From Dehalococcoidia bacterium (lineage in GTDB: Bacteria; Chloroflexota; Dehalococcoidia; Dehalococcoidales; W111), in assembly GCA_011191985.1 (NCBI GenBank), contig DUEU01000071.1, positions 1,283 through 55,348 on the forward strand: 54,066 bases of DNA. The letters are read 5' to 3'. A program made the translations under genes and the position numbers. Position 1 is the stretch's first letter; each line of letters begins with the position of its first letter. Of this stretch, positions 29,246-53,988 are shown piece by piece. Under the pieces are notes generated by a model. That model made no database searches, was not told where the DNA came from, and saw only the letters and a program-made list of their open reading frames with translations.

Positions 29246-29926
29246 CTAACCTGTTCGCCTTATTTTTAAACGTTTGATACTTGTCTCCAAAGATTTCAGG
29301 CCAGCACCCTGAGCGGTCAAGAGCACATACAATACGGTGAAAGCGGCAATACAAACCACCAATGTCATGAGCATTGGCGCTGTGATGCCGTCAGTAAAGA
29401 TGATGGTAGTCGGATGCTGGGTCCGCCAGACGTTTACCGTCAGAAAAACGATGGGGACATCGATGAAGCCCACGATACCCACCACGGCTCCGAACCTGGC
29501 ACCGCGGGCCGGCTCGGTGGCATACCCGCGCACCAGAAGATAGGCAATATATGTCAGCCAGAGCACCAAGGACGTCGTCAGGCGGGCATCCCACGTCCAC
29601 CAGATTCCCCAGGCCGTTTTCGCCCAGATAGGGCCGGTAATCAAGACCAGGGTGGTAAAGACAACGCCAACTTCTGCCGAAGCGTGGGCAATATAATCCC
29701 ACTTCAACAGCCGTTTACGGAGATAACAGATACTGAAGACAAAGGTGACCAGAAATGCCAGAAAGCTGACCCAGGCCAGGGAAACATGAAAATAGAATAT
29801 ACGCTGCACGATCCCCATAGATTTCTCGGTTGGCACATACATGAAGACCATATAGAGGGCGGCTATCATCAGCGCCAGTCCCAGCCCGAACAACAGGTTA
29901 TTTATAAGATTACGCCTTCCGTTCAT
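29246..29926 (-). CDS. ccmC: heme exporter protein CcmC
   Basis: QRIFYFHV, WGIWWTWDARLT WWD domain, RTQHP; start moved to ATG 29926. Confidence 0.93.
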   Translation of the reverse strand: MNGRRNLINNLLFGLGLALMIAALYMVFMYVPTEKSMGIVQRIFYFHVSLAWVSFLAFLVTFVFSICYLRKRLLKWDYIAHASAEVGVVFTTLVLITGPIWAKTAWGIWWTWDARLTTSLVLWLTYIAYLLVRGYATEPARGARFGAVVGIVGFIDVPIVFLTVNVWRTQHPTTIIFTDGITAPMLMTLVVCIAAFTVLYVLLTAQGAGLKSLETSIKRLKIRRTG

Positions 29927-29951
29927 AAGGGGCTCTTCTTCTTGGTGATTT

Positions 29952-30623
29952 TTACTCCTCAACAACAAAATCGAAAACCAGCGTGGATACGACGAGGTAA
30001 ACAATGTCGAAGGCTATCATTATTTGCAGCCATGTTAGCATATCTGACCACGACTTGTCGGCCAGCACCACCGCCGTAGCCCGCACCGCCGCAACCACCA
30101 CTGGAACGACGACCGGCAAAAAGAGGACCGGCAGCATAATATCCCGCGCCCGCGTGTTTATGGCCACCGCCGAGAACAGAGTGCCCACCGCCGCAAAGCC
30201 GAGAGAGGCCAGCCCGATTACAAGTAGCAGCCGGGGTAAAAAGAGGGGCAGGTTAAAAAGGGCGAGAAAGATAGGGGTAATGATAATGGCCACAACCATG
30301 GTGAAGGTGAAGCTGCCCGCGAGCTTACCCCAGTAAATAACAGCCCGGTCCACCGGACAAAGCATTAGTCCTTCCAGACGGGAATTTTCCTTCTCCACGG
30401 CAAAGGTATGATTGAAGCCAAGCACCCCACCGAAGGTTAACGCCGCCCACAGGATACCGGGGGCAACCAGCTCGGCCGTATCAATCCTGGTGCTAAAGGC
30501 AAAGCTGAAAATCACCACCACCAGCAGGGAAAAGACCAGCACCGAGGTCACGACCTCCCTGGCCCTGAGCTCCGTAAGGATATCCTTCCAGAAAATGGTG
30601 ATTATTCTGGCAAAAGTGCTCAT
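29952..30623 (-). CDS. ccmB: heme exporter protein CcmB
   Basis: WKDILTELR, APGILW, EKEN..LEGL, LPVLFLPVVVP. Confidence 0.93.
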   Translation of the reverse strand: MSTFARIITIFWKDILTELRAREVVTSVLVFSLLVVVIFSFAFSTRIDTAELVAPGILWAALTFGGVLGFNHTFAVEKENSRLEGLMLCPVDRAVIYWGKLAGSFTFTMVVAIIITPIFLALFNLPLFLPRLLLVIGLASLGFAAVGTLFSAVAINTRARDIMLPVLFLPVVVPVVVAAVRATAVVLADKSWSDMLTWLQIMIAFDIVYLVVSTLVFDFVVEE

Positions 30624-30626
30624 AAC

Positions 30627-31373
30627 CTAGCCCGTCTCCGTGCACTGATTATAGACCTGCCTGAAGAGCGTGGTGTCTATATCATGTCTGGATGCCCGAT
30701 AGGCGACTTTGCCTTTATTAAGGATGACGATACTATCACCCAGTTCCAGGCCTCGCTCCAGATTATGGGTGACCATCACCACGGTAAGACCATCGCCACC
30801 GGCATTGCCCATTACATCATTTATAACGGTGCTGGCCTGAGGGTCAAGACCAGCCTCCGGCTCATCGAGTAACATTATTGACGGCCTGTGGAGAGCCGCC
30901 CGGGCAAGGGAAGCCCTCTGCTGCAAACCGTGTGATAGGGTGCCGACCCGGTCATGCCGTCGGTCCACAAGCTGCATCCAAGACATTACCTCTTGAATCC
31001 GCTGTTCCAAATTCGCGATACCGTACATCTGGCTATAGAATTTAAGGTTCTCGTAAACGGTAAGGTTATCATAGAGAAAGGTCTGATGACCAACCAGACC
31101 TATCTTACGCCTCACCTGGGCCGGTTTATCACGTATGTTTACGCCATCCAGCCATACGTTGCCGGAGGACGGCCTGACTAGCATAGACAGTATCTTGACC
31201 AGCGTCGTCTTACCTGCCCCATTGGGCCCAAAGATGACCAGCCGCTCGCCCCGGCCAACCTGCAGGTCAATACCACGCAGGGCTGGATGGTAGCCGAACG
31301 ATTTGGTCAGCCCTTGAACCTCTATAGCCCAGGAGAAAGGGGATCGAGCATTCTCACTCACGGCTATTTCCAC
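30627..31373 (-). CDS. ccmA: heme ABC exporter ATPase CcmA
   Basis: GPNGAGKTT, LSHG, LLDEP; operon context. Confidence 0.9.
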   Translation of the reverse strand: MEIAVSENARSPFSWAIEVQGLTKSFGYHPALRGIDLQVGRGERLVIFGPNGAGKTTLVKILSMLVRPSSGNVWLDGVNIRDKPAQVRRKIGLVGHQTFLYDNLTVYENLKFYSQMYGIANLEQRIQEVMSWMQLVDRRHDRVGTLSHGLQQRASLARAALHRPSIMLLDEPEAGLDPQASTVINDVMGNAGGDGLTVVMVTHNLERGLELGDSIVILNKGKVAYRASRHDIDTTLFRQVYNQCTETG

Positions 31374-32319
31374 CCCTTCTTCTTCTCACTAGGTAAGTGA
31401 TAATACCAGCGATTATCACCACAACCACTACCCAGAAAAATACCAAAGACATACTGCTATCAGTCGGTAAATAAGAAAAGCTTAAGTGTATCACGGTGTC
31501 ACGGGGGAGATTGTCGCCCCGGAAGTGCAGGAAACGCTCACCGGCGTCAGTAATTACTGGCTCAGCCGGGGCCAGCTTATCCGTAGCCACCTCTATCCCC
31601 TCACTGGCTACCAGGAACTCGAAATTATCCGTAGGATAGTTGATTTTCAGGGGAATAGCTATCTCATTTGAATCCGGCCCAGCCAGCCGGTAAGAGTAGA
31701 CAAGCTGTCTTTCCCCCGGGGGAAACGGCACAAGATAGCTGACCGTATTGTCGTCCAGGAACTGGTAGTCCGGCATCAGTTCTGGCGGGGCCTCAAAGCC
31801 GGCCGCGCCCTCGGGTAGATTAAAAACCAGCCCGCCTCCTGTCTCGACATATGTCCGGTCTCCGTCATTGACTAGCCAGAGAACCTCGGTCACCAGCAGG
31901 CCCTCTTCCTCTAAAGTGATAATAACATGGGCCAGGCCAACCCTTATCGCCTCATCACTGTTAGTAGCATCACAGACCCAGACCTCCAAATATGCCGTCG
32001 CCTCTCCTGATTCAAAAGCCACCGGGTAGTAGTAATCAACCTCCATGTATTTCGCCGAGACCAGATAGGTATGCTCCACGGCAACATTGTCAAACCGGAA
32101 CTTACCTTCCTGATCGGTCCTGGTAGTTCTTGTTGCCGTCATCACATCTTCAACGTATGTAATCAAGATAACCTCTATTTCAGCTACGCTGCCACCACCT
32201 TCAGTGCCGTTGATTACTTGCCCATCGATTACCCCGACAGAAGGTCCCTGAGCAAGGGCGGTCACCGGTAAAATGACCATCAGCGAAACGAAAATGACAG
32301 CAATAATAATACGATGCAT
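31354..32319 (-). CDS. exported protein with carboxypeptidase-regulatory-like beta domain and C-terminal TM anchor, within ccm operon
   Basis: Signal peptide (TALA-Q), TRTDQEGKFRF motif, C-terminal TM followed by RRRR. Confidence 0.7.
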   Translation of the reverse strand: MHRIIIAVIFVSLMVILPVTALAQGPSVGVIDGQVINGTEGGGSVAEIEVILITYVEDVMTATRTTRTDQEGKFRFDNVAVEHTYLVSAKYMEVDYYYPVAFESGEATAYLEVWVCDATNSDEAIRVGLAHVIITLEEEGLLVTEVLWLVNDGDRTYVETGGGLVFNLPEGAAGFEAPPELMPDYQFLDDNTVSYLVPFPPGERQLVYSYRLAGPDSNEIAIPLKINYPTDNFEFLVASEGIEVATDKLAPAEPVITDAGERFLHFRGDNLPRDTVIHLSFSYLPTDSSMSLVFFWVVVVVIIAGIITYLVRRRRGGNSRE

Positions 32320-32322
32320 AAT

Positions 32323-34281
32323 CTATACTCTATCCCGATATAGCTGCCTGTCCTCGGCTAAAAAGGCGACCGCTCCCCCCAGCAGGAAGAAACCTCCCCC
32401 CACCCACATCCAGACAATCAACGGGTTCACCAAAACCCGGAAGGTAGCTGATTTATCCCCGGGGTCAAAACCGGTCCAGACCAGAGAGACGAATAGGTCC
32501 TCGGCCGGTGTGCTGCGTACTGCTACTTCGGCAAAGTGGTCATCGTGCCGGAACCAGTAATCATAGCTTGGCTGCATAACGCCCACCGGACGGCCATTAC
32601 GACTTGCCGACAGGGAGGCAATGGCCCTCGCTCTCACGTTGTCCTGTCTGAATATCAGTTCATCATAGGTTAATTCATATTTGCCAATATTCATAGTCTC
32701 GCCAATATCAAGGGTCGCCGTCCTCTCAATGTTATAGAAAGAGGAAACGATAATGCCGAGGGTAATGAGAATTATACCGATATGGGCCAGAAAACCACCG
32801 TACCTCGCCCGGTTGCTGCCAATCAGGAAAAGGAAGGCCAGGAAGTGGTTCTCCCCCCTGGCCCGGTGACGGGCCCTGGTGCCCCGGTACCACTCTTGCA
32901 GCACGATAAAAAGCGGAAAGCTGCATACCATCATCACCGCAATATACCAGTTGCCAATCCCGAAAACCAGAATAGCGATGGTAATTACCAGTACGGCCAG
33001 CAAAAAATAGCCGGCATTTCGCTCCGCTGGACTCCAGACCGCTTTCCCCCACCCCAGCAGCGGGCAAACTCCAGTAAAGAACACCAGGACGAGCATAACC
33101 GGCCCACAGGTCCGGTCAAAGAAGCTGCGGTCTAGCGTTATCCTCACCCCCGCCACGGCCTCAATTACCCGCGGCAGCACCGTTCCCGCCAGGATAATGA
33201 ATGCCAGGACTACTAGGATAACATTGGTCAGCAGAAAAGCGCCCTCTTTTGAGACGAGTGACGCCGGTTTTTCCTCATTCCCTGAATCCCGGTGGCGATA
33301 TAATAACCACGACGAACCGACCAGCGTAATCAGAATGGCCGCCAGGATGTACGGCGGAAAGGTCGAGCCGTAAAAGCCATGCAGGGGCGACTCAATGCCA
33401 CCGTGGGTGATAAAGGGGCTAAGCAGGGTCAATGCGAAAGTGAAAACAATAAGAAGCCGGCTCCAGGTAACCAGGTAACGCCGCCGCCTTCGCATCGCCA
33501 TCGAGTGTATAAAGGCGGTCCCCACCAGCCAGGGCATCAGCCCGGCATTCTCTACGGGATCCCACGCCCAGTACCCGCCCCAGCCGAGCTCATTGTAAGA
33601 CCACCACATCCCCAGTAAATTGCCTACCCCCAGGGTACACCAGGCAAAGATTGCCCAGCGTCTGACCACCGCGCCCCACTCGGCACCGGCGCGACGGGTG
33701 ATGAGCGCCGCCATGCTCAGGGCGAAGACAACGGCAAAGCCAGCGAAGCCCAGATACAGCAAAGGGGGATGAACTAGCATACCGAAATTCTGCAGTAGCG
33801 GATTCAGGCCAAAACCTTCGGCCACCGGTGATGGCTGTTTTTCAAATACGTTTACTACCAGTGTGATCAGGGCAATGAAAAATACCTGCACTACTGCCAG
33901 GATAGTAAGAGCATAATACTTAACCTGCCGGTGAAAACCCTGTTTCTGGAAAGCCAGGACAGCCGTAAAAAGCGAGACCAACCATCCCCAGAAGAACATG
34001 GAGCCGGCCTTGTCGGCATATAGAGCGCTCAATGTGTAGGCAGCGTTCAGGTCCCGGCTGACATGCTCGACGACAATTCTTAGGCTGAAATCCCTGGTGA
34101 AAAAGGCGTATATAATAACTGCCAGTGCCAGCGTGAACAGGCCGAAGAGAACGTATATGCTATTTCGGGCAATGGTTGTTGGCCACCCCGGCCCAATCCT
34201 GGCACCAATGGCTGAGGCTGTTGCCGCGAGTATTGCTACCGGGAGAGCCATAATTAAGGCGATATGTCCTATTTCCGTCAT
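32323..34281 (-). CDS. ccmF: cytochrome c heme lyase CcmF
   Basis: GLNPLLQ, HPPLLY, LGWGGYWAWDPVENA, NPLIVWMW. Confidence 0.95.
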   Translation of the reverse strand: MTEIGHIALIMALPVAILAATASAIGARIGPGWPTTIARNSIYVLFGLFTLALAVIIYAFFTRDFSLRIVVEHVSRDLNAAYTLSALYADKAGSMFFWGWLVSLFTAVLAFQKQGFHRQVKYYALTILAVVQVFFIALITLVVNVFEKQPSPVAEGFGLNPLLQNFGMLVHPPLLYLGFAGFAVVFALSMAALITRRAGAEWGAVVRRWAIFAWCTLGVGNLLGMWWSYNELGWGGYWAWDPVENAGLMPWLVGTAFIHSMAMRRRRRYLVTWSRLLIVFTFALTLLSPFITHGGIESPLHGFYGSTFPPYILAAILITLVGSSWLLYRHRDSGNEEKPASLVSKEGAFLLTNVILVVLAFIILAGTVLPRVIEAVAGVRITLDRSFFDRTCGPVMLVLVFFTGVCPLLGWGKAVWSPAERNAGYFLLAVLVITIAILVFGIGNWYIAVMMVCSFPLFIVLQEWYRGTRARHRARGENHFLAFLFLIGSNRARYGGFLAHIGIILITLGIIVSSFYNIERTATLDIGETMNIGKYELTYDELIFRQDNVRARAIASLSASRNGRPVGVMQPSYDYWFRHDDHFAEVAVRSTPAEDLFVSLVWTGFDPGDKSATFRVLVNPLIVWMWVGGGFFLLGGAVAFLAEDRQLYRDRV

Positions 34282-34290
34282 CGATAAGAA

Positions 34291-34674
34291 CTATTCTACG
34301 GGTTCGTACTTGGAGGGGCATTTCATTATAATTTGACTTGCCCGAAATACCCCGTCGGGGTGACCCTTTCCCTCAACCAGTATGTTAGAACCGACCTTAA
34401 ACCCGCTGGGCTTGGCACCCTGGTAAATCACCGGCAAGTTACGGCCACCTTCAGTGATGTCGAACCTGAGCTCGAGGTCGGCAGCATTCCAGTCAACCGG
34501 ACTATCCGCTATCTTACCAGCTACCCTAACGTTGGTATCATGGAACTCGCTACCGCTCTCTAAAAACTCGCTCACCGTTAGATAGTAACTTACCGAACTA
34601 CCAAAACTGAGGTAGAGAAGATAACCCACCACCAGTATAAGGATTACCCCCCCAATTAAATACTTCTTTTTCAT
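34291..34674 (-). CDS. ccmE: heme chaperone CcmE, CxxxY variant
   Basis: YYLTVSE, VRVAG, KCPSKY. Confidence 0.93.
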   Translation of the reverse strand: MKKKYLIGGVILILVVGYLLYLSFGSSVSYYLTVSEFLESGSEFHDTNVRVAGKIADSPVDWNAADLELRFDITEGGRNLPVIYQGAKPSGFKVGSNILVEGKGHPDGVFRASQIIMKCPSKYEPVE

Positions 34675-35007: not shown

Positions 35008-36015
35008 ATGCGAGTAAGACTATGGCCCGGTGTGGTAACCATTGTCGTCCTGCTGGCACTACTGGTATCAATTCCATTGCTCAGCGCCTGTGGTGGACCA
35101 AGTGAGACGCCAACTACCCCGACCACACCAACCACTCCAACAACACCGACCACTCCACCGACAGCAGAAGAATCCGAATTTGACGTAGTGCAGGATGCCG
35201 TGGCGGACTACCTGACCCACATGGCTCAGCACATAAAGGCTTCCGATTTACACATGATGATAGTTGAAGGCGATGCTCCATACATCGTCAGTACGCAAAG
35301 CGCGGAAAATTATGCCAAGGGAAATATTCCCGGGGCAATTAATATCGCATTCAGCGAACTGACCACACTCCCCAAGGATGAGGAGATTCTCCTATATTGC
35401 GATTCAGGTCAGGTAGCTTCCTTCGGAGCGGTAGTACTCGGTGTTCTGGGCTATGATGTCAATAATCTAAAACACGGGATAGCCGGCTGGACTTCGGACC
35501 CGAGCATTGCCACGGCACAGTTCGACCCGGAGAAACACCAGTCTGATTTCCAAACGGAGACCACGGCCAACGCTGGTTCGACCTATGACTACCCGGATAT
35601 TGACAACACTACCTCAACCGATACTGATGACATCATAGAGGCTGCAGTGGCAACGATATCGGCTAAATTTATCCTGGCAACTGATTTGAACATGAAGATT
35701 GCTGAAGGCGAGGACATGACTGTCCTGGACATTCGCAAGGCGGAGTATTATGCCGCCGGGCACATTCCCGGTGCCATAAACTTCGGGATAAGCAAACTGG
35801 TCGAGAACCTGAACAAACTTGACCCGGATGCACCAGTCTACGTATACTGCGATACTGGACACTGGGCGGCGGAGGCAGCGGCTCTACTGCAAGCGCTGGG
35901 GTATGACGCCTGGAGCCTCAAATACGGCATCTGCTCCTGGTCACCAGATGAGGCAATCAATAATGGCCTGTGCTACGATGCCGCCAGTATCCCGAATTAC
36001 GAGTTGGAAAAATAG
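35008..36015 (+). CDS. tandem rhodanese-domain lipoprotein
   Basis: Lipobox LSA-C, Pro/Thr linker, two domains with G[NH]IPGAIN and active-site YCDSGQ / YCDTGH; AAGGAGG RBS. Confidence 0.9.
   Translation: MRVRLWPGVVTIVVLLALLVSIPLLSACGGPSETPTTPTTPTTPTTPTTPPTAEESEFDVVQDAVADYLTHMAQHIKASDLHMMIVEGDAPYIVSTQSAENYAKGNIPGAINIAFSELTTLPKDEEILLYCDSGQVASFGAVVLGVLGYDVNNLKHGIAGWTSDPSIATAQFDPEKHQSDFQTETTANAGSTYDYPDIDNTTSTDTDDIIEAAVATISAKFILATDLNMKIAEGEDMTVLDIRKAEYYAAGHIPGAINFGISKLVENLNKLDPDAPVYVYCDTGHWAAEAAALLQALGYDAWSLKYGICSWSPDEAINNGLCYDAASIPNYELEK
35110..35163 (+). repeat. (Pro-Thr-Thr)x5 coding linker repeat
   Basis: cca act acc ccg acc aca cca acc act cca aca aca ccg acc act; synonymous codons vary between units. 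Confidence 0.9.
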
Positions 36016-36127: not shown

Positions 36128-37447
36128 ATGAAGCGACCGATATTAGCAGTGGCAGCGGCAATATTGGTGCTGTTTGTAATTGCCGCCTTTGGCTGTACGG
36201 AAGGAGAACCGGCGGTAACCCCCGTAGAAGGGGAGGTAGTCGCCAGCTCCTGTGTAAGCTGCCACAGCGATAAAGACCTGCTTAAGGCAGTAGCTTCACC
36301 GGAACCAGAAGAGGCCGTGTCTGAGGCCACCACGGGCGAAGGCTGAGGGGGAGAGTTGCCTCCGTTGGAGGCATGGGAAAAGGTCTTCCTGGGTGATGCC
36401 GATTTCATGGAGAGCACCCACGGCAAGGTGGGTTGCGTTATCTGTCATGGTGGCGACAGCAGTATAGCAGACAAGGAACTGGCCCATACCGGGCTGTTAG
36501 CCGACCCTTCCGACATCAGTTGTGATACCTGTCACCAGGATATTGACGAGAAGCATGATTTCAGTCTCCATGCCACCCTCGGTGGCTTTCAGTCGGTTCT
36601 TGAAGCCAGGGGTGGTAATCTGGAAGAGGGCTCCCCACTGGCCACGGCCTTTGAGAATCACTGCCAGCAGTGCCACACCTCCTGTGGTCAGTGCCACGTC
36701 AGTCGGCCGGATGAGACGGGCGGGGGACTGGTCTCGGACCATGAGTTCCGCCCTACTCCCTCGATGCAGTATAACTGTGTAGCCTGCCACGGCTCACGTG
36801 TTGGCGATGAATACCTCGGCAATAACGAGGGAATCCCAGCCGATGTCCACTGGACGCAGGCAACAATGACTTGCGCCAAATGCCACAGCCAGGAACTGCA
36901 CGGCTCCAGCCAATCCGCAGCTACCCGATACCAGAATTCAAATGTCGTAAAATGTGAAGACTGCCATGAGGAAGTCTGGACAAACACGGAGGGTAATCCC
37001 CAGCATGAGCAGCACCTGAGCGACCTTCAATGCCAGGTGTGCCACTCTGTAGCCTATAAGAACTGCTACGGCTGTCATGTTGCTTTTGATGAGGAGGGGC
37101 TACCCTGCCGTACCAGTGAACCTTCCCAGATAGACTTTGAAATCGGCTACAATCCGCTGCGGTCCTCGGAGCGTCCCTACAAGTACGTAGTATTACGCCA
37201 CGTACCTACTTGCCTGGGCACCTGTGACTACTATGGCGCCAACCTATTGCCAGACTTCAATGCCTTACCAACCTGGAAGTACGCCACGCCGCATAACATT
37301 CAGCTCAACACCCCACAAAATGAAAGCTGTGACGCCTGTCATGGCAACATTGACCTGTTCTTAACCGAAGATGACGTCCGCCCCGAGGAGAGAGAGCCCA
37401 ATAAGGATGTCATTGTGACCGGTAATCCTTATACGCCGGAGGAATAA
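36128..37447 (+). CDS. 11-heme c-type cytochrome lipoprotein with predicted selenocysteine (U73, GEG-U-GG), 439 aa
   Basis: ORFs 36116-36346 and 36356-37447 share a frame and are separated only by TGA 36344-36346; lipobox AFG-C; 1 CxxCH before and 10 after the TGA; the downstream part has no signal peptide of its own; SECIS-like hairpin follows. Confidence 0.85.
36357..36373 (+). promoter_or_regulatory. SECIS-like hairpin
   Basis: TGCCTCC-GTT-GGAGGCA, perfect 7-bp stem; G-first loop 17 nt downstream of the in-frame UGA. Confidence 0.75.
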
Positions 37448-37454
37448 CCAGGGC

Positions 37455-38372
37455 ATGGAGCTAAGTCGAAGGAAATTTTTAAAAGCCTCCGCCTGTGCCG
37501 CTGGTGCTGCCGGTCTGCTGTTACTTAAGCCAGCAACCTCGGTCCTAGCCAGCGATTCACAGACTCGAGAAGGCATGGCCATGCTGGTGGATGTTACCAA
37601 ATGCGTCAGTTGCTGGTGGTGCTACGCCGCCTGTAAAAATTACAACAGGCTACCGGAGACTATCAAACCCGACCCGGCAGACCCGCCCCCGCTTTCCCCT
37701 AAGGTCTGGACGACTCTGAAACCGATAAAGAAGGGTAATGAGTGGCATTCCCGAAAACAGGCGTGTAACCACTGCACTGATGCCGCCTGTGTTGCGGTCT
37801 GCCCCACCGGAGCGCTGAGCTACAACCATCAGGGTTTCGTCCAGTACGATAAGGAGAAATGCTCCGGCTGCGGGTATTGCGCCGAGTTCTGTCCCTTCGG
37901 GGTGCCGCAAATGGAGAGCAACCGGCTTACCGGGGTCGCTATCATGAACAAGTGCACTTTCTGCCAAGACCGGGTGGCCAATGGTGAGCAACCCGCCTGT
38001 GCCGAAGCCTGTCCCACGGGGGCAATCAAATTTGGCCAACGTTCAGAACTGGTGACGGAGGGACGGGGAAAAACAGCAGACCTGAGAAAGACAAATCCCG
38101 ATGCGACCTTCTACGGAGACAAAGAGCTAGACGGCCTGCACGTGATGTATGTGCTTGATGATGCACCGGCAGTATACGGTCTGCCCGCGGAACCTGAAGT
38201 CGCGGCGGCTACTTCAGTGCGAGACGTACTTCAATGGGTAGGAGCCGGCGCCACCGTCGCCGTAATTCTCGGCTTCGGTCTCAACTATATTGTCGCCCGC
38301 GAAGCAATGATGACCAGCCGTCTACCCGGGAAAGAGTATATGCGCAAGAGTAAAATTGAAGGCAAGCAATGA
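37455..38372 (+). CDS. Tat-exported 4x[4Fe-4S] electron-transfer subunit (FdnH/HybA/DmsB-like) with C-terminal TM
   Basis: SRRKFLK twin-arginine; CVSCWWCYAAC, CNHC..C..VCPTGA, CSGCGYCAEFCP, KCTFC..PAC..CP. Confidence 0.9.
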   Translation: MELSRRKFLKASACAAGAAGLLLLKPATSVLASDSQTREGMAMLVDVTKCVSCWWCYAACKNYNRLPETIKPDPADPPPLSPKVWTTLKPIKKGNEWHSRKQACNHCTDAACVAVCPTGALSYNHQGFVQYDKEKCSGCGYCAEFCPFGVPQMESNRLTGVAIMNKCTFCQDRVANGEQPACAEACPTGAIKFGQRSELVTEGRGKTADLRKTNPDATFYGDKELDGLHVMYVLDDAPAVYGLPAEPEVAAATSVRDVLQWVGAGATVAVILGFGLNYIVAREAMMTSRLPGKEYMRKSKIEGKQ

Positions 38373-39016
38373 CTGAACCGCGAGTAGTGGAGCGTTTCAA
38401 GAAGAGGACCATCTGGTTTCACTGGATTCATACTACCGCCTTCCTGGCGCTGATAGTGACCGGGGCAATTCTGTTCTTCCCGGGGCTCGGCGCTCCTGCC
38501 GCTGGCGGCCTGACCAGACTTATTCACCGCATTGCGGCGGCACTCTTCGTGGCGGCACCAGTAATATACGCTGTGTTCAACCCGAGAATGACGCTGCATT
38601 TCATCAAGGAGACCCTGACATGGGGCATAGACGACTTTGGCTGGGCAGAAGCCGCCCCGCTCTACTACTTCGGTGGTGGGGAGGAAAAGATGCCCCCGCA
38701 GGGACATGTAAATACCGGCCAGAAGATGTGGCAGGTTATCGTACTGGGCACTGGCGTTTTATTCTTTATAAGCGGCTTAATAATGTGGTTTTTCAAAGGA
38801 ACGGTTACTACAGAAGTCTTTCAGTGGTGCGTTATTGTTCATGACGTTGCCTTTATCCTGGCCTTCCTCATGCTGCTGGTACATATCTACACCGGCGTCA
38901 TTCATCCCCGGATGACTGAGTCGCTTCGTTCAATGTGGGACGGCAGAGTTTCCAAAACTTATGCCCGGCACCACTATGGCAAGTGGTATGATGAGACTTC
39001 GGCCGGTGACAAGTAG
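38369..39016 (+). CDS. di-heme cytochrome b membrane anchor (FdnI-like)
   Basis: WFHW, LIHRI, NTGQK, IVHD, LVHIY heme His residues; HHYGKW tail. Confidence 0.9.
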   Translation: MTEPRVVERFKKRTIWFHWIHTTAFLALIVTGAILFFPGLGAPAAGGLTRLIHRIAAALFVAAPVIYAVFNPRMTLHFIKETLTWGIDDFGWAEAAPLYYFGGGEEKMPPQGHVNTGQKMWQVIVLGTGVLFFISGLIMWFFKGTVTTEVFQWCVIVHDVAFILAFLMLLVHIYTGVIHPRMTESLRSMWDGRVSKTYARHHYGKWYDETSAGDK

Positions 39017-39045: not shown

Positions 39046-39330
39046 CTAGTCGCCTACCCGCACCCGACCCCAGATGCCGATTACTCTGGCTAGAGAATCA
39101 AGGGCAACCGTATCGGTTTCTTGAGCGGTCTGGCGGAAGCAGAGATGCATGTAGTTATTCAAGACCAACGCCCCGGTACTGTCAATAGCCGAACGTACGG
39201 CCGCTAGCTGGGTCACTATACTTTCGCAATCCCGCTCTTCGGAAACCATTTTCTGGAGACCCCGTAACTGACCCTCGATTCTCTTGAGGCGCTTTAACAC
39301 TGCTTCCCTTGATACTTCTTCCTGATTCAT
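39046..39330 (-). CDS. CsoR/RcnR family repressor, CstR-like
   Basis: RLKRIEGQLRG, DC35..TQLAAVR, C64; Tyr60 at the usual Cu-ligand His position; ATG follows GGAGG. Confidence 0.88.
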   Translation of the reverse strand: MNQEEVSREAVLKRLKRIEGQLRGLQKMVSEERDCESIVTQLAAVRSAIDSTGALVLNNYMHLCFRQTAQETDTVALDSLARVIGIWGRVRVGD

Positions 39331-39454
39331 CAAGTCCTCCGGAATACCAGCCTAGTTCATAGTATACTACAATCTAATATCGCCTGAATACAGCAGGAAA
39401 GCAGCGTGGTAATATTAGTACCGCCATGGCATCATAGAACTAACCTGGTACCGG

Positions 39455-40299: not shown

Positions 40300-41712
40300 C
40301 TGAAGATTAGGCTACATTTTTTAGGTGCTTCACGTAATGTTACTGGTTCCTGTTACCTGTTAGAGGCTGATGATATCCGCGTGATTATAGATTGTGGGTT
40401 ATATCAGGAGCGTAAATATCAAGATAGGAACTGGCAACCATTCCCATTCAGCCCGGAAACAATCGATGCTGTCTTTCTAACGCATGCCCATCTCGACCAC
40501 TGTGGCCTGTTACCCAAGCTGGTGCGTGATGGCTTTAAAGGTAGGATATACTGCACGCAAGCCACAGCAGAGATAGCCCAAATTATTCTACTCGATGCGG
40601 CCCATCTTCAGGAAGAAGACGCTGCTTATAAGGCAAAACGTCACCAGCGTGAAGGTCGTCGGGGGCCGCATCCGGAGTTACCACTTTATACTGTTGAAGA
40701 TGCCGAGGCAGTCGCACCATACTTCACTGCTGTAGAATATGATAGTTGCGTAAGAATAAAAGACGGCATCGAGGGCTGTTTCTATGAGGCCGGCCATGTT
40801 CTCGGTTCAGCGACTGTTGCTATCAATACAGTCCAGGACGACAAGAAGCAGCGTATCCTTTTCTCCGGTGATATTGGCGAACCAGACCGGCCTATTATTA
40901 ATGACCCGGCCATTTTTAATGCGGCAGATTATATAGTCGTTGAATCAACCTACGGTGACCGCACCCATGCCGAGCATAAGATCACTGATATTCAATCACA
41001 ACTGCGTGATTGCATAAACGAGACAGTACAGGCAGGCGGTAACATCATCGTGCCCAGCTTCGCATTGGAACGCAGTCAGGAAATACTCTACCATTTGAAT
41101 GAACTCTTCCTGCGCAACGAAATACCGCCGATAACCGTCTTTCTGGATAGTCCGATGGCAATACGTATTACCGAAGTCTTTAAACATCATGCCGAACTCT
41201 TCGACACGGAAATGACGCGGCGTCTGCGCCAGGGAAATTCACCTTTTAGCTTTGACAACTTGAAAATGGTGCAGACTACAGAGGAGTCCAAGGCAATCAA
41301 CTCTCTTAAAGGTAGCGCTATAATCATAGCGGGTAGCGGCATGGTGAGTGGCGGACGTATTAAACATCACCTTGTGAACAACATCACCCACCCCGGGAGC
41401 ACCGTTCTTTTCGTGGGATATCAAGCGGAGGGGACGCCGGGTAGAAAACTCCTGGACGGGGCGAAGCGGATACGACTATTAGGGCGTACTCACCGCGTGC
41501 GGGCGCGCGTTGTTAAAATAGACGGCTTTTCTGCCCATGCTGATCGTGACGGGCTGTTGGCCTGGCTATCTGACATCAGAATACCACCTCGCTACGTATT
41601 TATCACCCATGGTGAAAAGAAGGCCGCCATTAGCTTTGCCCAGTTTCTGGGAGAGAAGACAGGTTGGAAAACATCTGTGCCAGAATATGGGGCAGACGTT
41701 TTACTGGAATAG
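40300..41712 (+). CDS. MBL-fold beta-CASP ribonuclease-like hydrolase
   Basis: LHFLGASRNVTGSC upstream of the track start, THAHLDH, AGHVLG, SGD, ESTYG, FSAHAD, HGE; start probably CTG 40300. Confidence 0.88.
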   Translation: MKIRLHFLGASRNVTGSCYLLEADDIRVIIDCGLYQERKYQDRNWQPFPFSPETIDAVFLTHAHLDHCGLLPKLVRDGFKGRIYCTQATAEIAQIILLDAAHLQEEDAAYKAKRHQREGRRGPHPELPLYTVEDAEAVAPYFTAVEYDSCVRIKDGIEGCFYEAGHVLGSATVAINTVQDDKKQRILFSGDIGEPDRPIINDPAIFNAADYIVVESTYGDRTHAEHKITDIQSQLRDCINETVQAGGNIIVPSFALERSQEILYHLNELFLRNEIPPITVFLDSPMAIRITEVFKHHAELFDTEMTRRLRQGNSPFSFDNLKMVQTTEESKAINSLKGSAIIIAGSGMVSGGRIKHHLVNNITHPGSTVLFVGYQAEGTPGRKLLDGAKRIRLLGRTHRVRARVVKIDGFSAHADRDGLLAWLSDIRIPPRYVFITHGEKKAAISFAQFLGEKTGWKTSVPEYGADVLLE

Positions 41713-50843: not shown

Positions 50844-50955
50844 TGTTGACAAAGCCGTACGAGAATTAATTAAAATAAGTGGAGAGTGGCATGCACGGTT
50901 TTTCGGTGTCTCTAGGTGATAGCCTTCTGCCTCAGTGGAAAGGAGGAGACTACTT

Positions 50956-53900
50956 GTGGAACTAAACCGCAGAGATTTTTTAAAGCTGTCAGGAATAGGT
51001 ACCGGTGCCGCTGTAGCTTTTAGTCTCCTTCCCTATACAGCGGCATTTGCTGCCCCCAGAGAGTTCCCTCTAAAGAGAAAGGTCAAAGAGACCAGCACCG
51101 TCTGCTGCTACTGCTCTGTTGGCTGCGGAGCAATTGTAACGGCATATGAGGATGGAATCATCAAGATTGAGGGGGACCCCGACCATCCCATCAATGAGGG
51201 TGCGTTATGTCCCAAGGGGCAGGCTATGGCTCAGATTCACCAAGTTAATGGTGAGCCCAACCAGTACCGGCTTACTAAACCTCTGTATCGGGCGCCAAAC
51301 GCCGAAGACTGGGAAGAAAAGTCGTGGGACTGGATGATAGAGACAATCGCTAGAAGGGTTAAGAATACCCGTGATAATAACTGGAACAATTCGGCGAACC
51401 GGACCGATGCCATTGCCAGCCTGGGCGGTGGCGAGCTGGATAATGAAGAGTGTTATCTGCTGACTAAGATGAACCGTGCCCTCGGCGTTGTGTATTTAGA
51501 GCACTGTGCCCGTATCTGACATTCCTCTACAGTTGCGGCTCTGGCAGAGTCGTTCGGTAGGGGAGCAATGACCAACCATTATATTGACCTTAGAAATGCC
51601 GACTGTGTGATGATTATTGGCTCCAATGCAGCCGAGAACCATCCCATATCATTCAAATGGATTACCAGGGCGATGGAGAAGGGGGCCAAGCTTATCAACG
51701 TTGATCCGCGCTTCACTCGCACCTCTTCCAAGGCAGATATCTATGCGCCAATAAGGTCTGGTACCGATATCGCCTTTATCGGTGGCATAATAAACTACGT
51801 GCTTAATGACATGGAGAAAAATCCCGGTAACTACAATATGGAATATGTGAAGCAGTATACCAATGCCGCTCTTATTATCAATCCTGAGTTTACTTTCAAT
51901 AACGGGCTATTCGGAGAAATAAGTAGTGGTAATTATACTGCTGCTTCAAAGAACACCTGGAAATATGCCGATACAAAAGCGCCAGCCGCTGACCTGACTT
52001 TAAAAGACCCCAATTGTGTCTTCCAGTTGATGAAAAAGCATTACTCACGCTATGACGTGGATACAGTATGTAATATTACTGGTACCCCTAAGAATGTTTA
52101 CCTGGAGGTTATCAAGGCCTATACGGCAACAGGTAAAAAGGGTAAGGCAGGTACTATTTGTTATGCCATGGGCACCACCCAGCACACTTATGGCACCCAG
52201 AATATCAGAAGCTATGCCATACTCCAGCTTCTGCTGGCCAACATGGGTGTTGCCGGTGGTGGCATAAATGCCCTGCGGGGCACATCCAATGTGCAGGGCT
52301 CCACTGATATGTGCCTGCTGTCTCATATCCTGCCCGGTTATCTCAATGTACCGGTTGAAAGCGACACTGATCTTGAAACATACCTGAAGCGAAGTGATAA
52401 GCACCCTGATGTCACCATCACACCTCAAGGCCTGGCTGGTGATACCAGTTCTAACTGGTGGGGCAACGCCAAGAAGTACACAGTCAGCTTGCTCAAGGCC
52501 TGGTATGGTGATGCTGCTACCAAGGACAATGAATTTTGCTTCAATTACCTGCCCAGAGTTGACTCCAAGGTAAACTACACCCATATCGGGATGTTTGAGG
52601 CCATGGGGCAGGGCAAAATCAAGGGACTCTGGGTCTGGGGGCAAAATCCAGCAGCGGGAGGTCCTAATTCTAACGGGGAGCGGGAAGCACTGGCAAAGCT
52701 GGATTGGCTTGTTGCCGCCGACATATGGATGAACGAGACCTCTGAGTTCTGGAAGAGACCCGGCGTAAATCCGTCTGACATCAATACCGAGGTATTTATT
52801 TTACCGGCAGCCTGCTCCTATGAAAAGGAGGGGAGCATCAGTAACAGTGGGCGCTGGGCACAGTGGCGCTACAAGGCAGTGGAACCCCCAGGGGAAGCCA
52901 TGGCCGACCTGGAGATTATGAACCTCGTTATGCTGAAGCTGAAAGAGCTTTATCAGGCAGAAAGCACCCCCCAAGCCAGGCCAATCATGGACTTGGACTG
53001 GAATTATGGGGAGCATATTACTGCTGATGCCGTGGCAAGAGAGGTCAATGGCTATGACCTGACCACCGGTAAGCTGGTCGCCAGCTTCGCGGCATTGAAG
53101 GACGACGGCACTACCACGTCCGGTAACTGGCTATACTGCAACCAGTACTCTGAAGAAGAAGGCAACAAATGCGCCAGACGTGGCATGGTGGATTCACATC
53201 CCCGGCAGATCGGGCTTTATTCTAACTGGTCATGGTGCTGGCCGTTAAACCGGCGCATTATTTACAACCGGGCATCCGTTGACCTTAATGGGATACCCTG
53301 GGATGGTGAGCGACCTGTTATCCTTTATGACAGTGCGACAAAGAAGTGGGAAGGTGATGTTCCCGATGGCGGCTGGCCACCCATTAATAAAGCGGAAACT
53401 GGAGCAAAATATCTACCCTTTATCATGAAGCCGGAAGGCGTAGCACGACTCTGGGGCTATGGCCGTGTCGAGGGACCGCTGCCCGAAGCCTATGAGCCGT
53501 GGGAAAGCCCGTTAGATAAGAACCTGATGTCTGGAACCAAGACTAATCCTTGTGCTTTTATCGGCACTTACATGAATGAGCGGGGCACGCCGGATAAATA
53601 TCCTTGTGTGGGCACTACTTATCGCTGCACCGAGCACTGGCAGACCGGTATCATGACCCGGAACCTCCCCTGGCTGGTGGAACTCATGCCCAATATGTAT
53701 GTAGAGATGGACGAGGAACTGGCTGCCGACAAGGGTATTAAAGGTGGCGATAATGTCGTGGTGAGTTCGGCGCGAGGGGAAATCAGCGCTGTGGCGGTAG
53801 TCACCAGGCGCTTCCGACCGCTGCGAGTGGATGGGCAGACCATCCATCACATAGGCGTAATCTGGCACTTCGGTTACAGCGGCATGGCGAAGGGTGATAG

Positions 53901-53988
53901 TGGCAACATCCTTACTCCGCATGTTGGTGATGCCAACACGACCATTCCGGAATACAAGACATTCCTGTGCAATGTGAGGAGGGCATAA
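50956..53988 (+). CDS. fdnG: formate dehydrogenase-N alpha subunit, selenocysteine-containing (U188), Tat-exported
   Basis: NRRDFLK Tat motif, CCYCSVGC..LCPKG, ARI-U-HSSTVAALAESFGRGAMTN across TGA 51517-51519, ALRG..NVQG; GTG 50956 follows AGGAGG. Confidence 0.95.
51535..51553 (+). promoter_or_regulatory. SECIS hairpin of fdnG
   Basis: GCGGCTCT-GGC-AGAGTCGT stem-loop; G-first loop 23 nt after the UGA. Confidence 0.75.

Follow-up and report, generated by a model that had tools for sequence, protein, structure and literature searches.

The 54,066-nucleotide stretch analyzed here (positions 1,283 to 55,348 of contig DUEU01000071.1, assembly GCA_011191985.1, from a Dehalococcoidia bacterium of the Chloroflexota; hereafter, the window) carries on its forward strand a gene for a predicted c-type cytochrome lipoprotein with eleven hemes (36128-37447), whose reading frame is interrupted by a single internal in-frame TGA at 36344-36346. 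Sequence comparison indicates that this TGA is very probably read as selenocysteine (Sec), yielding one single protein. The frame runs from an ATG at 36128, with a GGAG located seven bases 5' of it, to a TAA at 37445-37447. A mechanical open reading frame (ORF) list cuts it into a short product of 72-76 residues (36116/36128-36346) and a 363-residue product with a TTG start (36356-37447). An initial annotation of this DNA had proposed that ORF calling splits, at the TGA, a gene whose frame continues, and both the coordinates and the frame are as it described.

The joined protein comprises 439 residues with Sec at position 73 (U73), and its junction reads TTGEG-U-GGELPPLEAWEK. Eleven CXXCH motifs were counted in the joined frame (at C42, C103, C132, C179, C186, C217, C249, C276, C302, C313 and C401), matching the initially proposed count of one heme before the TGA and ten after it. 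The heme-1 motif CVSCH, 5' of the TGA (36251-36265, forward strand), has C42, C45 and H46 invariant in 68/68 aligned members, and the Cys-Cys-His triads of all 11 motifs are likewise invariant among these 68; in some Anaerolineae, a longer spacer in one motif makes a plain CXXCH count return 10. Six loci of an Anaerolineae/Ardenticatenales subgroup (L046, L048, L052, L053, L055 and L056) contain 13 CXXCH motifs, with a C-terminal extension that adds two hemes and a membrane anchor. A hydrophobic N-terminal signal peptide, read from the sequence by eye (36128-36196, forward strand), ends in a lipobox-like AAFG-C23, and 25 of the 29 members whose alignment extends to the N-terminus have a Cys in that column. 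No export signal was read in the downstream ten-heme part, in agreement with the earlier argument that this part needs the upstream lipoprotein signal. Sec73 (codon 36344-36346) falls 27 residues after heme 1, within a Gly-rich GEG-U-GG loop between hemes 1 and 2.

Motifs, export signal and a cytochrome c maturation (Ccm) system together identify the product as a multiheme c-type cytochrome, and it is the sole frame with more than two CXXCH motifs in the draft genome. Family scans against Pfam and NCBIfam returned only generic multiheme matches (Cytochrome_C7, c3, the MtrC/MtrF domain, DmsE and NrfB), all of them weak, and the curated selenoprotein models NF040886 (ExtKL), NF041027 (GSU2204 family) and TIGR04315 (octaheme) gave no match at E up to 0.01. 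A PDB sequence search produced short generic multiheme matches only, with a best E of 0.0012 for the single protein and of 4e-07 over ~70 profile positions for the alignment. A search with an AlphaFold2 model revealed no structural neighbour, the model being poor (mean predicted local distance difference test score, pLDDT, 65.9, and <50 around the Sec site).

Of 8000 candidates scored in a protein search, 2319 qualified as relatives (E up to 0.001), and the best 120 were inspected. Nearly all of these (116/120) are 317-373 residues long, cover 71-83% of the query and are called from just after the TGA point; the other four comprise two shorter fragments, a 373-residue protein (P0120) and an uninterrupted protein of 428 residues that covers 98% of the query (P0118). 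Members among these best homologues carry the NCBI name "hypothetical protein". A scan of one genome per species identified 201 stretches encoding a relative, and locus counts given hereafter refer to the best 80 of the 201. According to their record titles, 77 of the 80 loci belong to Chloroflexota (Dehalococcoidia, Anaerolineae, Ardenticatenales, Caldilineales and "Chloroflexia"), with one each from Syntrophaceae, Eisenbacteria and Thorarchaeota. The contig labelled Candidatus Thorarchaeota (L059) has the gene and a bacterial-type hairpin in its coding sequence, clusters with Anaerolineae-like members, and probably represents a bacterial contig that was binned wrongly.

An in-frame walk upstream from the ten-heme part of each locus located a TGA within GEG-TGA-[GA]G in 73 of the 80 loci; four loci (L022, L025, L029 and L067) end before the site and are uninformative, so that the codon is conserved in 73 of 76 informative loci. 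The conserved TGA that the initial annotation had named as support for Sec is hence present across the orthologues. The informative loci without it are L064, which has TGG (Trp), and L066 and L070, which lack the motif. No TAA, TAG or frame change, any of which had been named beforehand as speaking for two separate genes, was found at the site among the informative loci of the best 80. Frame and spacing at the TGA are fixed in all 73 loci, and each of the 64 TGA loci with gene bounds set contains exactly one internal stop. Considering the 73 loci and the window together, the internal stop is TGA in 74/74 genes, versus 14/72 (19%) among terminal stops (TAG 31, TAA 27, TGA 14, with two genes running off the locus). 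A nucleotide alignment around the codon shows that, before as well as after the TGA, only third codon positions vary (GGn GAn GGn TGA GGn GGn GAn), as they do in sequence that is translated.

To this we can add the residue found at the site in more distant relatives. An exhaustive HMMER search of 1.84 billion representatives clustered at 50% identity yielded 555 matching proteins (E up to 0.001), 150 of them listed. Among the 150 matches listed, 32 have their start within a few positions downstream of the site (protein residues 1-6 aligned to query 77-84), which is the signature of a gene call restarting after the TGA. Another 38 representatives match from before the site and, together with P0118, provide 39 uninterrupted sequences in which the residue was counted at a fixed distance from a conserved WEKV anchor; the linker alignment is uncertain in the most distant rows. 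Cys, the classical counterpart of Sec, occupies the site in 10 of these 39, followed by Trp (6), Gly (4), Tyr (3), Met, Leu, Val, Ala, Pro and Ser (2 each), and His, Glu, Thr and Arg (1 each). Most Cys forms keep the G-C-GG context, as in GEGCGGTVPEMEAWEK, and in five of the other rows a Cys lies at most two residues away. Homologues that carry Cys where the window has Sec, another of the checks first suggested, were therefore recovered, 10 at the exact position and 5 more close to it.

Trp at the site, which the initial annotation had considered would point to a nonsense mutation or a sequencing error, does occur, in L064 and in 6/39 distant forms, where it is a minority beside TGA and Cys. 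L064 has a close relative with TGA (L073), and its genome keeps selA, selB and selD. Because that genome still has selA and selB, the Trp forms, one base away from TGA, are best read as secondary losses and not as a sign that the TGA is an error. Loss of Sec through loss of the Sec machinery was considered and rejected, as the genomes of L064, L066 and L070 all have selA; selB scores above the cut-off in two of them, and only fragments were found in the third.

The region immediately downstream of the TGA contains a hairpin resembling a selenocysteine insertion sequence (SECIS), with a 7-bp stem and a GTT loop (36357-36373, forward strand; TGCCTCC-GTT-GGAGGCA, arms 36357-36363 and 36367-36373, loop 36364-36366), which is present in the minimum-energy fold. 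Its sequence and its distance of 10 nt from the TGA agree with the perfect hairpin at bacterial SECIS distance that had been claimed, and this spacing matches both that of the Escherichia coli fdhF element (~11 nt) and published bacterial SECIS models. Support for the hairpin comes from comparison across related loci and not from single-sequence energy. In a gap-free alignment of 73 sequences (the window and 72 loci, omitting L016, which begins only at the TGA), 96.5% of the cells in the seven proposed pairs are paired, and compensatory changes on both sides are seen in 4/7 pairs, providing the conserved hairpin that the initial annotation had suggested looking for. The sixth pair (24-38), which is G-C in 40 sequences, A-U in 18 and G-U in 13, couples the synonymous third position of a Leu/Val codon with a site, ten residues past Sec, at which Ala and Val replace each other; in addition, the Syntrophaceae locus swaps a C-G pair for G-C, and L073 swaps a C-G pair for A-U.

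The observed pairing scores were reached by 0/500 column shuffles, a zero that is not a probability since the shuffles ignore relatedness. The case does not rest on the shuffles alone, because the compensatory events and the slid controls speak independently: when the 3' arm is slid by one to three columns, pairing falls to 42-57%. The first loop base is an invariant G across the alignment, and the element thus combines a stem-loop just 3' of the UGA, a location inside the coding sequence and a G in the apical loop, as expected of a SECIS. Synonymous sites of the hairpin codons are frozen: the first Pro codon is CCT in 72/72 sequences versus 13% elsewhere in the same genes, the second Pro codon is CCG in 69/69 versus 42%, and the Leu codon is TTG in 63/65 versus 13%. 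Rfam at gathering thresholds gave no match in the whole window, including the SECIS of fdnG, which makes its silence uninformative, and no tRNA was found in the window.

The fdnG gene provides the second Sec codon of the window. This gene, encoding an FdnG-type formate dehydrogenase (50935-53988, forward strand), has a TGA at 51517-51519 corresponding to U195 in the canonical motif HCARI-U-HSSTV, and after this TGA comes a stem-loop of two tiers whose apical loop has three bases, the first of them G (z = -3.96). The initial annotation had taken fdnG as an indication that the organism decodes Sec, and this canonical codon is internal evidence for such decoding. FdnG is Tat (twin-arginine)-exported, and the genes after it, close to the window but outside it, encode an iron-sulfur subunit and, instead of an FdnI-type cytochrome b, a polytopic membrane protein of 385 residues. 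BSepDB reports Dehalococcoidia genomes with 46-49 selenoprotein genes, and a Sec-rich background is therefore expected. The draft genome itself (97 contigs, 2.0 Mb, estimated 95% complete and 2.3% contaminated) contains selB (393.5 bits, above cut-off). In genomes with close homologue loci, selA adjoins selB and selD is present, itself with a TGA; selA was found in 3/3 close genomes searched (the one of the same genus and both of the same family) and in 11/21 of all genomes searched within the taxonomic order, with G000 counted among those without. The selD genes of all five relatives' genomes searched, including those of L091 and L092, have one in-frame TGA each, which makes their selenophosphate synthetase a selenoprotein.

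According to the mechanism that we propose, SelB would be directed to the UGA at 36344-36346 by the coding-sequence hairpin at 36357-36373, the ribosome would insert Sec, and the product would be a lipoprotein anchored to the membrane and facing outward, with eleven c-type hemes and, in the GEG-U-GG loop, a single Sec. The comparative data support the core of the initial annotation, a single exported 11-heme cytochrome c made through a TGA read as Sec, and the cytochrome appears as the founding member of a selenoprotein family, mostly from Chloroflexota, that gene callers split in two. This explanation, of a Sec-containing single gene that founds a new selenoprotein family, is in our estimate quite likely.

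Several observations weigh against this interpretation. Of the machinery genes that the initial annotation proposed to look for, selB alone was recovered from the draft. Searches for selA (TIGR00474, PF03841 and tblastn with a relative's SelA) found none in the draft; those for selD returned a 44-bit match below cut-off, no match to NF002098 and, with a relative's SelD, a 24%-identical paralogue; and for tRNA-Sec (selC) the best Rfam score in the draft, obtained at a tRNA-Ser, was 42.5 (threshold 47), while ARAGORN identified 33 tRNAs in it, none of them for Sec. We take these absences to be an assembly gap; three absent genes exceed what 5% incompleteness would lead one to expect, unless they are linked. 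The single-sequence fold energy of the hairpin is unremarkable (z = -1.1 over 86 nt and -1.9 over 50 nt, equalled by 26 and 10 of 200 shuffles, respectively), and a three-base loop on a 7-bp stem is small for a bacterial SECIS. Finally, the Trp that replaces Sec in L064 and in the six distant forms implies that the residue is dispensable for folding, and perhaps for some function.

A very improbable alternative is that of two genes, in which the TGA would end a 72-residue one-heme lipoprotein and the ten-heme protein would restart at a nearby TTG or GTG through coupled re-initiation. Gene callers do split at the same point in nearly all of the best homologues, an in-frame TTG, GTG or ATG lies at most 7 codons after the TGA in 73/74 genes, and the Gly and Glu codons 3' of the TGA are purine-rich and resemble a ribosome-binding site. 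Against it, the ten-heme part has no signal peptide, yet its hemes need to be attached outside the membrane, which is where the Ccm system attaches them. Two separate genes would also sit poorly with an internal stop that is always TGA, in a frame and at a spacing that stay constant while third-position variation runs across the junction, with a hairpin that covaries, and with uninterrupted homologues, bearing Cys, Trp, His or Met at the site, that mark the unit as one polypeptide. More improbable still is readthrough of the UGA with Trp or some other standard amino acid inserted, whether through near-cognate decoding or through a changed genetic code. In its favour, the TGG of L064 beside the TGA of its close relative L073, the Trp in 6/39 distant representatives and the failure to find selA, selD and tRNA-Sec in the draft can be invoked. 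Against it, TGA is the ordinary terminator of 14/72 of the same genes, a covarying hairpin at SelB distance would have no role, Cys is the commonest replacement at the site, and the genome has selB and a canonical FdnG Sec codon.

The protein read as a Sec-containing cytochrome offers several candidate heme ligands. Nine non-motif His residues are invariant among the 68 members (H98, H120, H148, H205, H241, H258, H296, H358 and H389) and H178 is kept in 67/68, giving 10 candidate distal His ligands for 11 hemes. The heme lacking a His partner may be His/Met-coordinated, five-coordinate, or ligated by or adjacent to Sec73. Met247, kept in 64/68 members, could be the eleventh distal ligand, and the count is therefore not decisive for a contact between Sec and heme. 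The initial annotation had also drawn attention to extra non-heme Cys residues at LPCRT and CLGTC. Both motifs are present in the sequence (C327, and C362/C366), yet they do not belong to the family core, being kept in 22, 22 and 21 of 68 members, respectively, within a Dehalococcoidales subclade. With at most 22/68 members having them, a role for these cysteines as a family-wide part of the active site was rejected.

The genes surrounding the cytochrome were compared across the 80 loci, several of which have too little flank for neighbours to be scored. Upstream, on the same strand, lies a gene for a predicted tandem-rhodanese lipoprotein with two domains and a Pro/Thr-rich linker (35008-36015; PF00581, 107 bits in two stretches). 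A rhodanese is found in 56/80 loci, including those of Syntrophaceae and Eisenbacteria (L058 and L072), where it is located downstream. In one locus (L041, 27-2492), the rhodanese domains lead, in a 405-residue frame, directly into heme 1 and the TGA; this fusion of rhodanese, heme 1, TGA, ten hemes and a C-terminal membrane helix is a continuous frame except for the TGA. Several ten-heme fragments bear the JGI name "thiosulfate/3-mercaptopyruvate sulfurtransferase", a naming probably due to fusions of the L041 kind.

Directly downstream, also on the forward strand, are genes for an FdnH/HybA-like four-cluster iron-sulfur subunit with a Tat signal (37455-38372; Fer4_11 and TAT_signal, TIGR01582 at 173.8 bits against a cut-off of 334.7) and for an FdnI-like four-helix cytochrome b that would form a quinone module (38369-39016; PF01292 at 71.6 bits, TIGR01583 at 103.2 against a cut-off of 115.85). 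The iron-sulfur subunit directly follows the cytochrome in 55/80 loci, and the cytochrome b subunit is found in 40/80. Assignment of this pair to fdnG was rejected, as fdnG has its own subunits and the pair stays beside the cytochrome in other genomes. At L047 (5372-8660, reverse strand), the opposite strand encodes nearby a ferredoxin with a Tat signal and a polytopic membrane protein of 785 residues with CXXCH motifs at its end, an arrangement seen in Anaerolineae loci without the FdnH/FdnI-like pair, and these two proteins may constitute an alternative membrane module.

Further downstream, the reverse strand encodes a 95-residue repressor of the CsoR/RcnR/FrmR family (39046-39333; PF02583, 89.7 bits), present in 31/80 loci, which holds Cys36 and Cys65 as counted in the sequence. 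The repressor has a Tyr where, as we presume, copper-sensing CsoR has a His, and would in that case resemble the persulfide sensor CstR. Divergent from the operon, an apparently complete ccm cluster on the reverse strand (29246-34674) encodes a CcmC-like protein, CcmB, an ABC ATPase, a 321-residue product of no clear family, CcmF and CcmE; ccmE accompanies the operon in 20/80 loci and ccmF in 21/80. Since no other frame in the draft genome exceeds two CXXCH motifs, serving the cytochrome may be the main purpose of the Ccm system. Beyond the repressor, a beta-CASP metallo-beta-lactamase ribonuclease is encoded at 40381-41712 (forward strand); its best NCBIfam match is type VII CRISPR Cas14, at 393 bits against a cut-off of 800, which leaves an ordinary aCPSF1- or RNase J-like nuclease as its probable identity. 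Comparison across the loci thus delineates, at the level of predicted genes, a conserved unit of rhodanese, Sec-multiheme cytochrome, iron-sulfur protein and cytochrome b, accompanied by maturation genes and a small repressor.

The closest parallel among known systems is MccSep (ExtKL, GSU2937-2936, of Geobacter sulfurreducens; NF040886), which is described as a five-heme Sec enzyme acting as polysulfide and selenite reductase, in which Sec attacks the substrate beside a His/Cys heme, and as essential for elemental sulfur respiration (PMC13510729). Its gene is reported within an extHIJKLMNOPQS cluster that includes the rhodanese-like ExtH (PMC5877670). Like the cytochrome of the window, MccSep is an exported c-type multiheme protein split by annotation at an in-frame UGA, has a stem-loop after the UGA and shows Sec/Cys alternation among homologues (PMC13510729). 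The two differ in that MccSep, as described there, has five hemes versus the 11 here, places its Sec (U325) in a C-terminal Ig-like domain within DG-U-P, whereas Sec here is residue 73 of 439 within GEG-U-GG, and has a heme-ligating C239, whereas no free Cys is family-wide here. The partners here are FdnH/FdnI-like, unlike those of MccSep. The distribution also differs: MccSep is mainly found in Desulfobacterota and Nitrospirota, the main text of PMC13510729 does not include Chloroflexota, and the family described here belongs to Chloroflexota. NF040886 match, heme number, Sec position and conserved ligating Cys all place the cytochrome outside MccSep.

The membrane partners share with the formate dehydrogenase-N module (FdnH and FdnI, and also HybA of hydrogenase-2 and PhsC of thiosulfate reductase) a Tat-exported four-cluster ferredoxin with a C-terminal helix, a four-helix cytochrome b, and a position of the module genes directly after the catalytic subunit. 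In contrast to that module, the catalytic partner here would be the Sec-heme protein and not a Sec-molybdopterin subunit; with both TIGR01582 and TIGR01583 below their cut-offs and a cytochrome as the upstream gene, the operon does not belong to FdnGHI. DmsE/MtrA (TIGR03508) and NrfB have similarly dense CXXCH motifs and give weak local matches, the score to TIGR03508 being 32.2 bits against a cut-off of 192.2, which leaves the cytochrome outside the DmsE/MtrA family. We know of no Sec-containing member in the DmsE/MtrA or NrfB families. TsdA and SoxAX, His/Cys-ligated heme enzymes (PMC13510729), likewise combine a c-type heme with a chalcogen side chain as a possible catalytic ligand, and the residues found at the site here include Cys, His and Met, all of them heme ligands. 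They differ in that no sequence relation to them was found in family and PDB sequence searches, and in that Sec ligation here is a step that we infer. The GSU2204 family (NF041027) and the octaheme cytochrome of the tetrathionate reductase family (TIGR04315) also have CXXCH motifs and an in-frame UGA (PMC13188914). The table of prokaryotic selenoprotein families in that 2026 review includes three heme-related families, none of which matches the one described here, and a full-text literature search, with supplementary homologue lists outside its scope, found no description of an eleven-heme selenoprotein family.

Gene neighbourhood and analogy suggest, at a likelihood somewhat short of even, that the conserved unit carries out sulfur or selenium redox chemistry with the rhodanese. 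Given two lipoprotein signals and one Tat signal, its catalytic parts would lie outward of the cytoplasmic membrane, where the four proteins would form a quinone-linked redox complex with sulfane sulfur (polysulfide, persulfide or elemental sulfur) or selenium oxyanions as substrate. The rhodanese, a persulfide carrier by family, would deliver or remove sulfane sulfur, and the chalcogen would be handed to Sec73, the reactive group, placed by its flexible glycine loop next to heme 1, and beside or on a heme iron. Electrons would pass through the eleven hemes and the iron-sulfur subunit, and the cytochrome b would exchange them with menaquinone. The periplasmic formate dehydrogenase encoded on the same contig would fit a chain from formate through quinone to the cytochrome complex. 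Whether the complex would run in the reductive or the oxidative direction we consider about an even question, and that Sec73 is a heme ligand (a role that the initial annotation had suggested, along with that of a redox arm) or a heme-adjacent catalyst we regard as a possibility on the unlikely side. Two points tell against this functional proposal: its basis is genomic context together with the analogy to an unrelated family, and the predicted structure yields no geometry for the Sec site.

A different role, which we hold to be unlikely, would be to conduct electrons between the membrane complex and partners outside the cell (for example metals, humics or other cells), in either direction, with Sec only as an unusual axial heme ligand or redox tuner and the rhodanese as an accessory. 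The best family matches, weak as they are, are to electron-transfer multihemes; the protein would be a surface lipoprotein and is the genome's only multiheme cytochrome; some Anaerolineae members add two hemes and a C-terminal membrane anchor; and the Trp, Leu, Val and Tyr variants at the site are what one would expect where catalysis is not essential. A plain wire would, however, hardly explain the linkage to rhodanese across phyla or its in-frame fusion, and a CsoR-family regulator accompanies the operon. Sec is, moreover, costly, and in the known selenoproteins listed in PMC13188914 it is found in redox-active sites.

The oxidative direction, in the specific form of sulfide, polysulfide or thiosulfate being oxidized outside the membrane and menaquinone being reduced, in a proton-motive redox loop like that of formate dehydrogenase-N, seems rather unlikely. 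The partner subunits do score best against formate dehydrogenase beta and gamma subunits and HybA, and in modules of the FdnH/FdnI type the usual electron path leads from an external donor to quinone. A possible link to the TsdA and SoxAX reactions run in reverse is also raised by the authors of the MccSep study (PMC13510729). Arguing for the opposite direction, the formate dehydrogenase on the same contig, with partners of its own, would supply quinol for a terminal reductase. The same cytochrome b family is used by the thiosulfate reductase subunit PhsC, which runs as a quinol oxidase, although the match to it here is weak (E 0.0042).

On sequence comparison, we rate the family as a second multiheme cytochrome selenoprotein family, unrelated in sequence to MccSep and unlike it in architecture and partners. 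MccSep, reported in 2026, is the only multiheme cytochrome selenoprotein characterized so far, and an unrelated family combining Sec, hemes and rhodanese would show that such chemistry originated repeatedly and would provide a second system for its study. The family is common, with 201 stretches in species-level genomes and 555 clusters at 50% identity, and the annotation error is widespread, its members being almost always recorded as a short fragment plus a "hypothetical protein". Because the gene is annotated as two pieces, metabolic reconstructions of Chloroflexota miss an exported respiratory complex. For the Dehalococcoidia and Anaerolineae that live in sediments and aquifers, the physiology suggested is one in which sulfur or selenium is respired or oxidized.

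A bolder proposal, which we consider doubtful, is that Sec73 serves as the distal axial ligand of a c-type heme, or sits over it, and is fed by the rhodanese, making the complex a molybdenum-free polysulfide, elemental-sulfur or selenite reductase wired to menaquinone. If Sec touched the heme iron, the protein would contain a natural selenolate-heme centre, of which we know no other example. If it were a rhodanese-fed reductase, it would be the main respiratory enzyme of many sediment Dehalococcoidia and Anaerolineae, since it is the sole multiheme cytochrome of these small genomes. A role in sulfur or selenium respiration would then have been hidden, by split annotation, in abundant and poorly understood bacteria.

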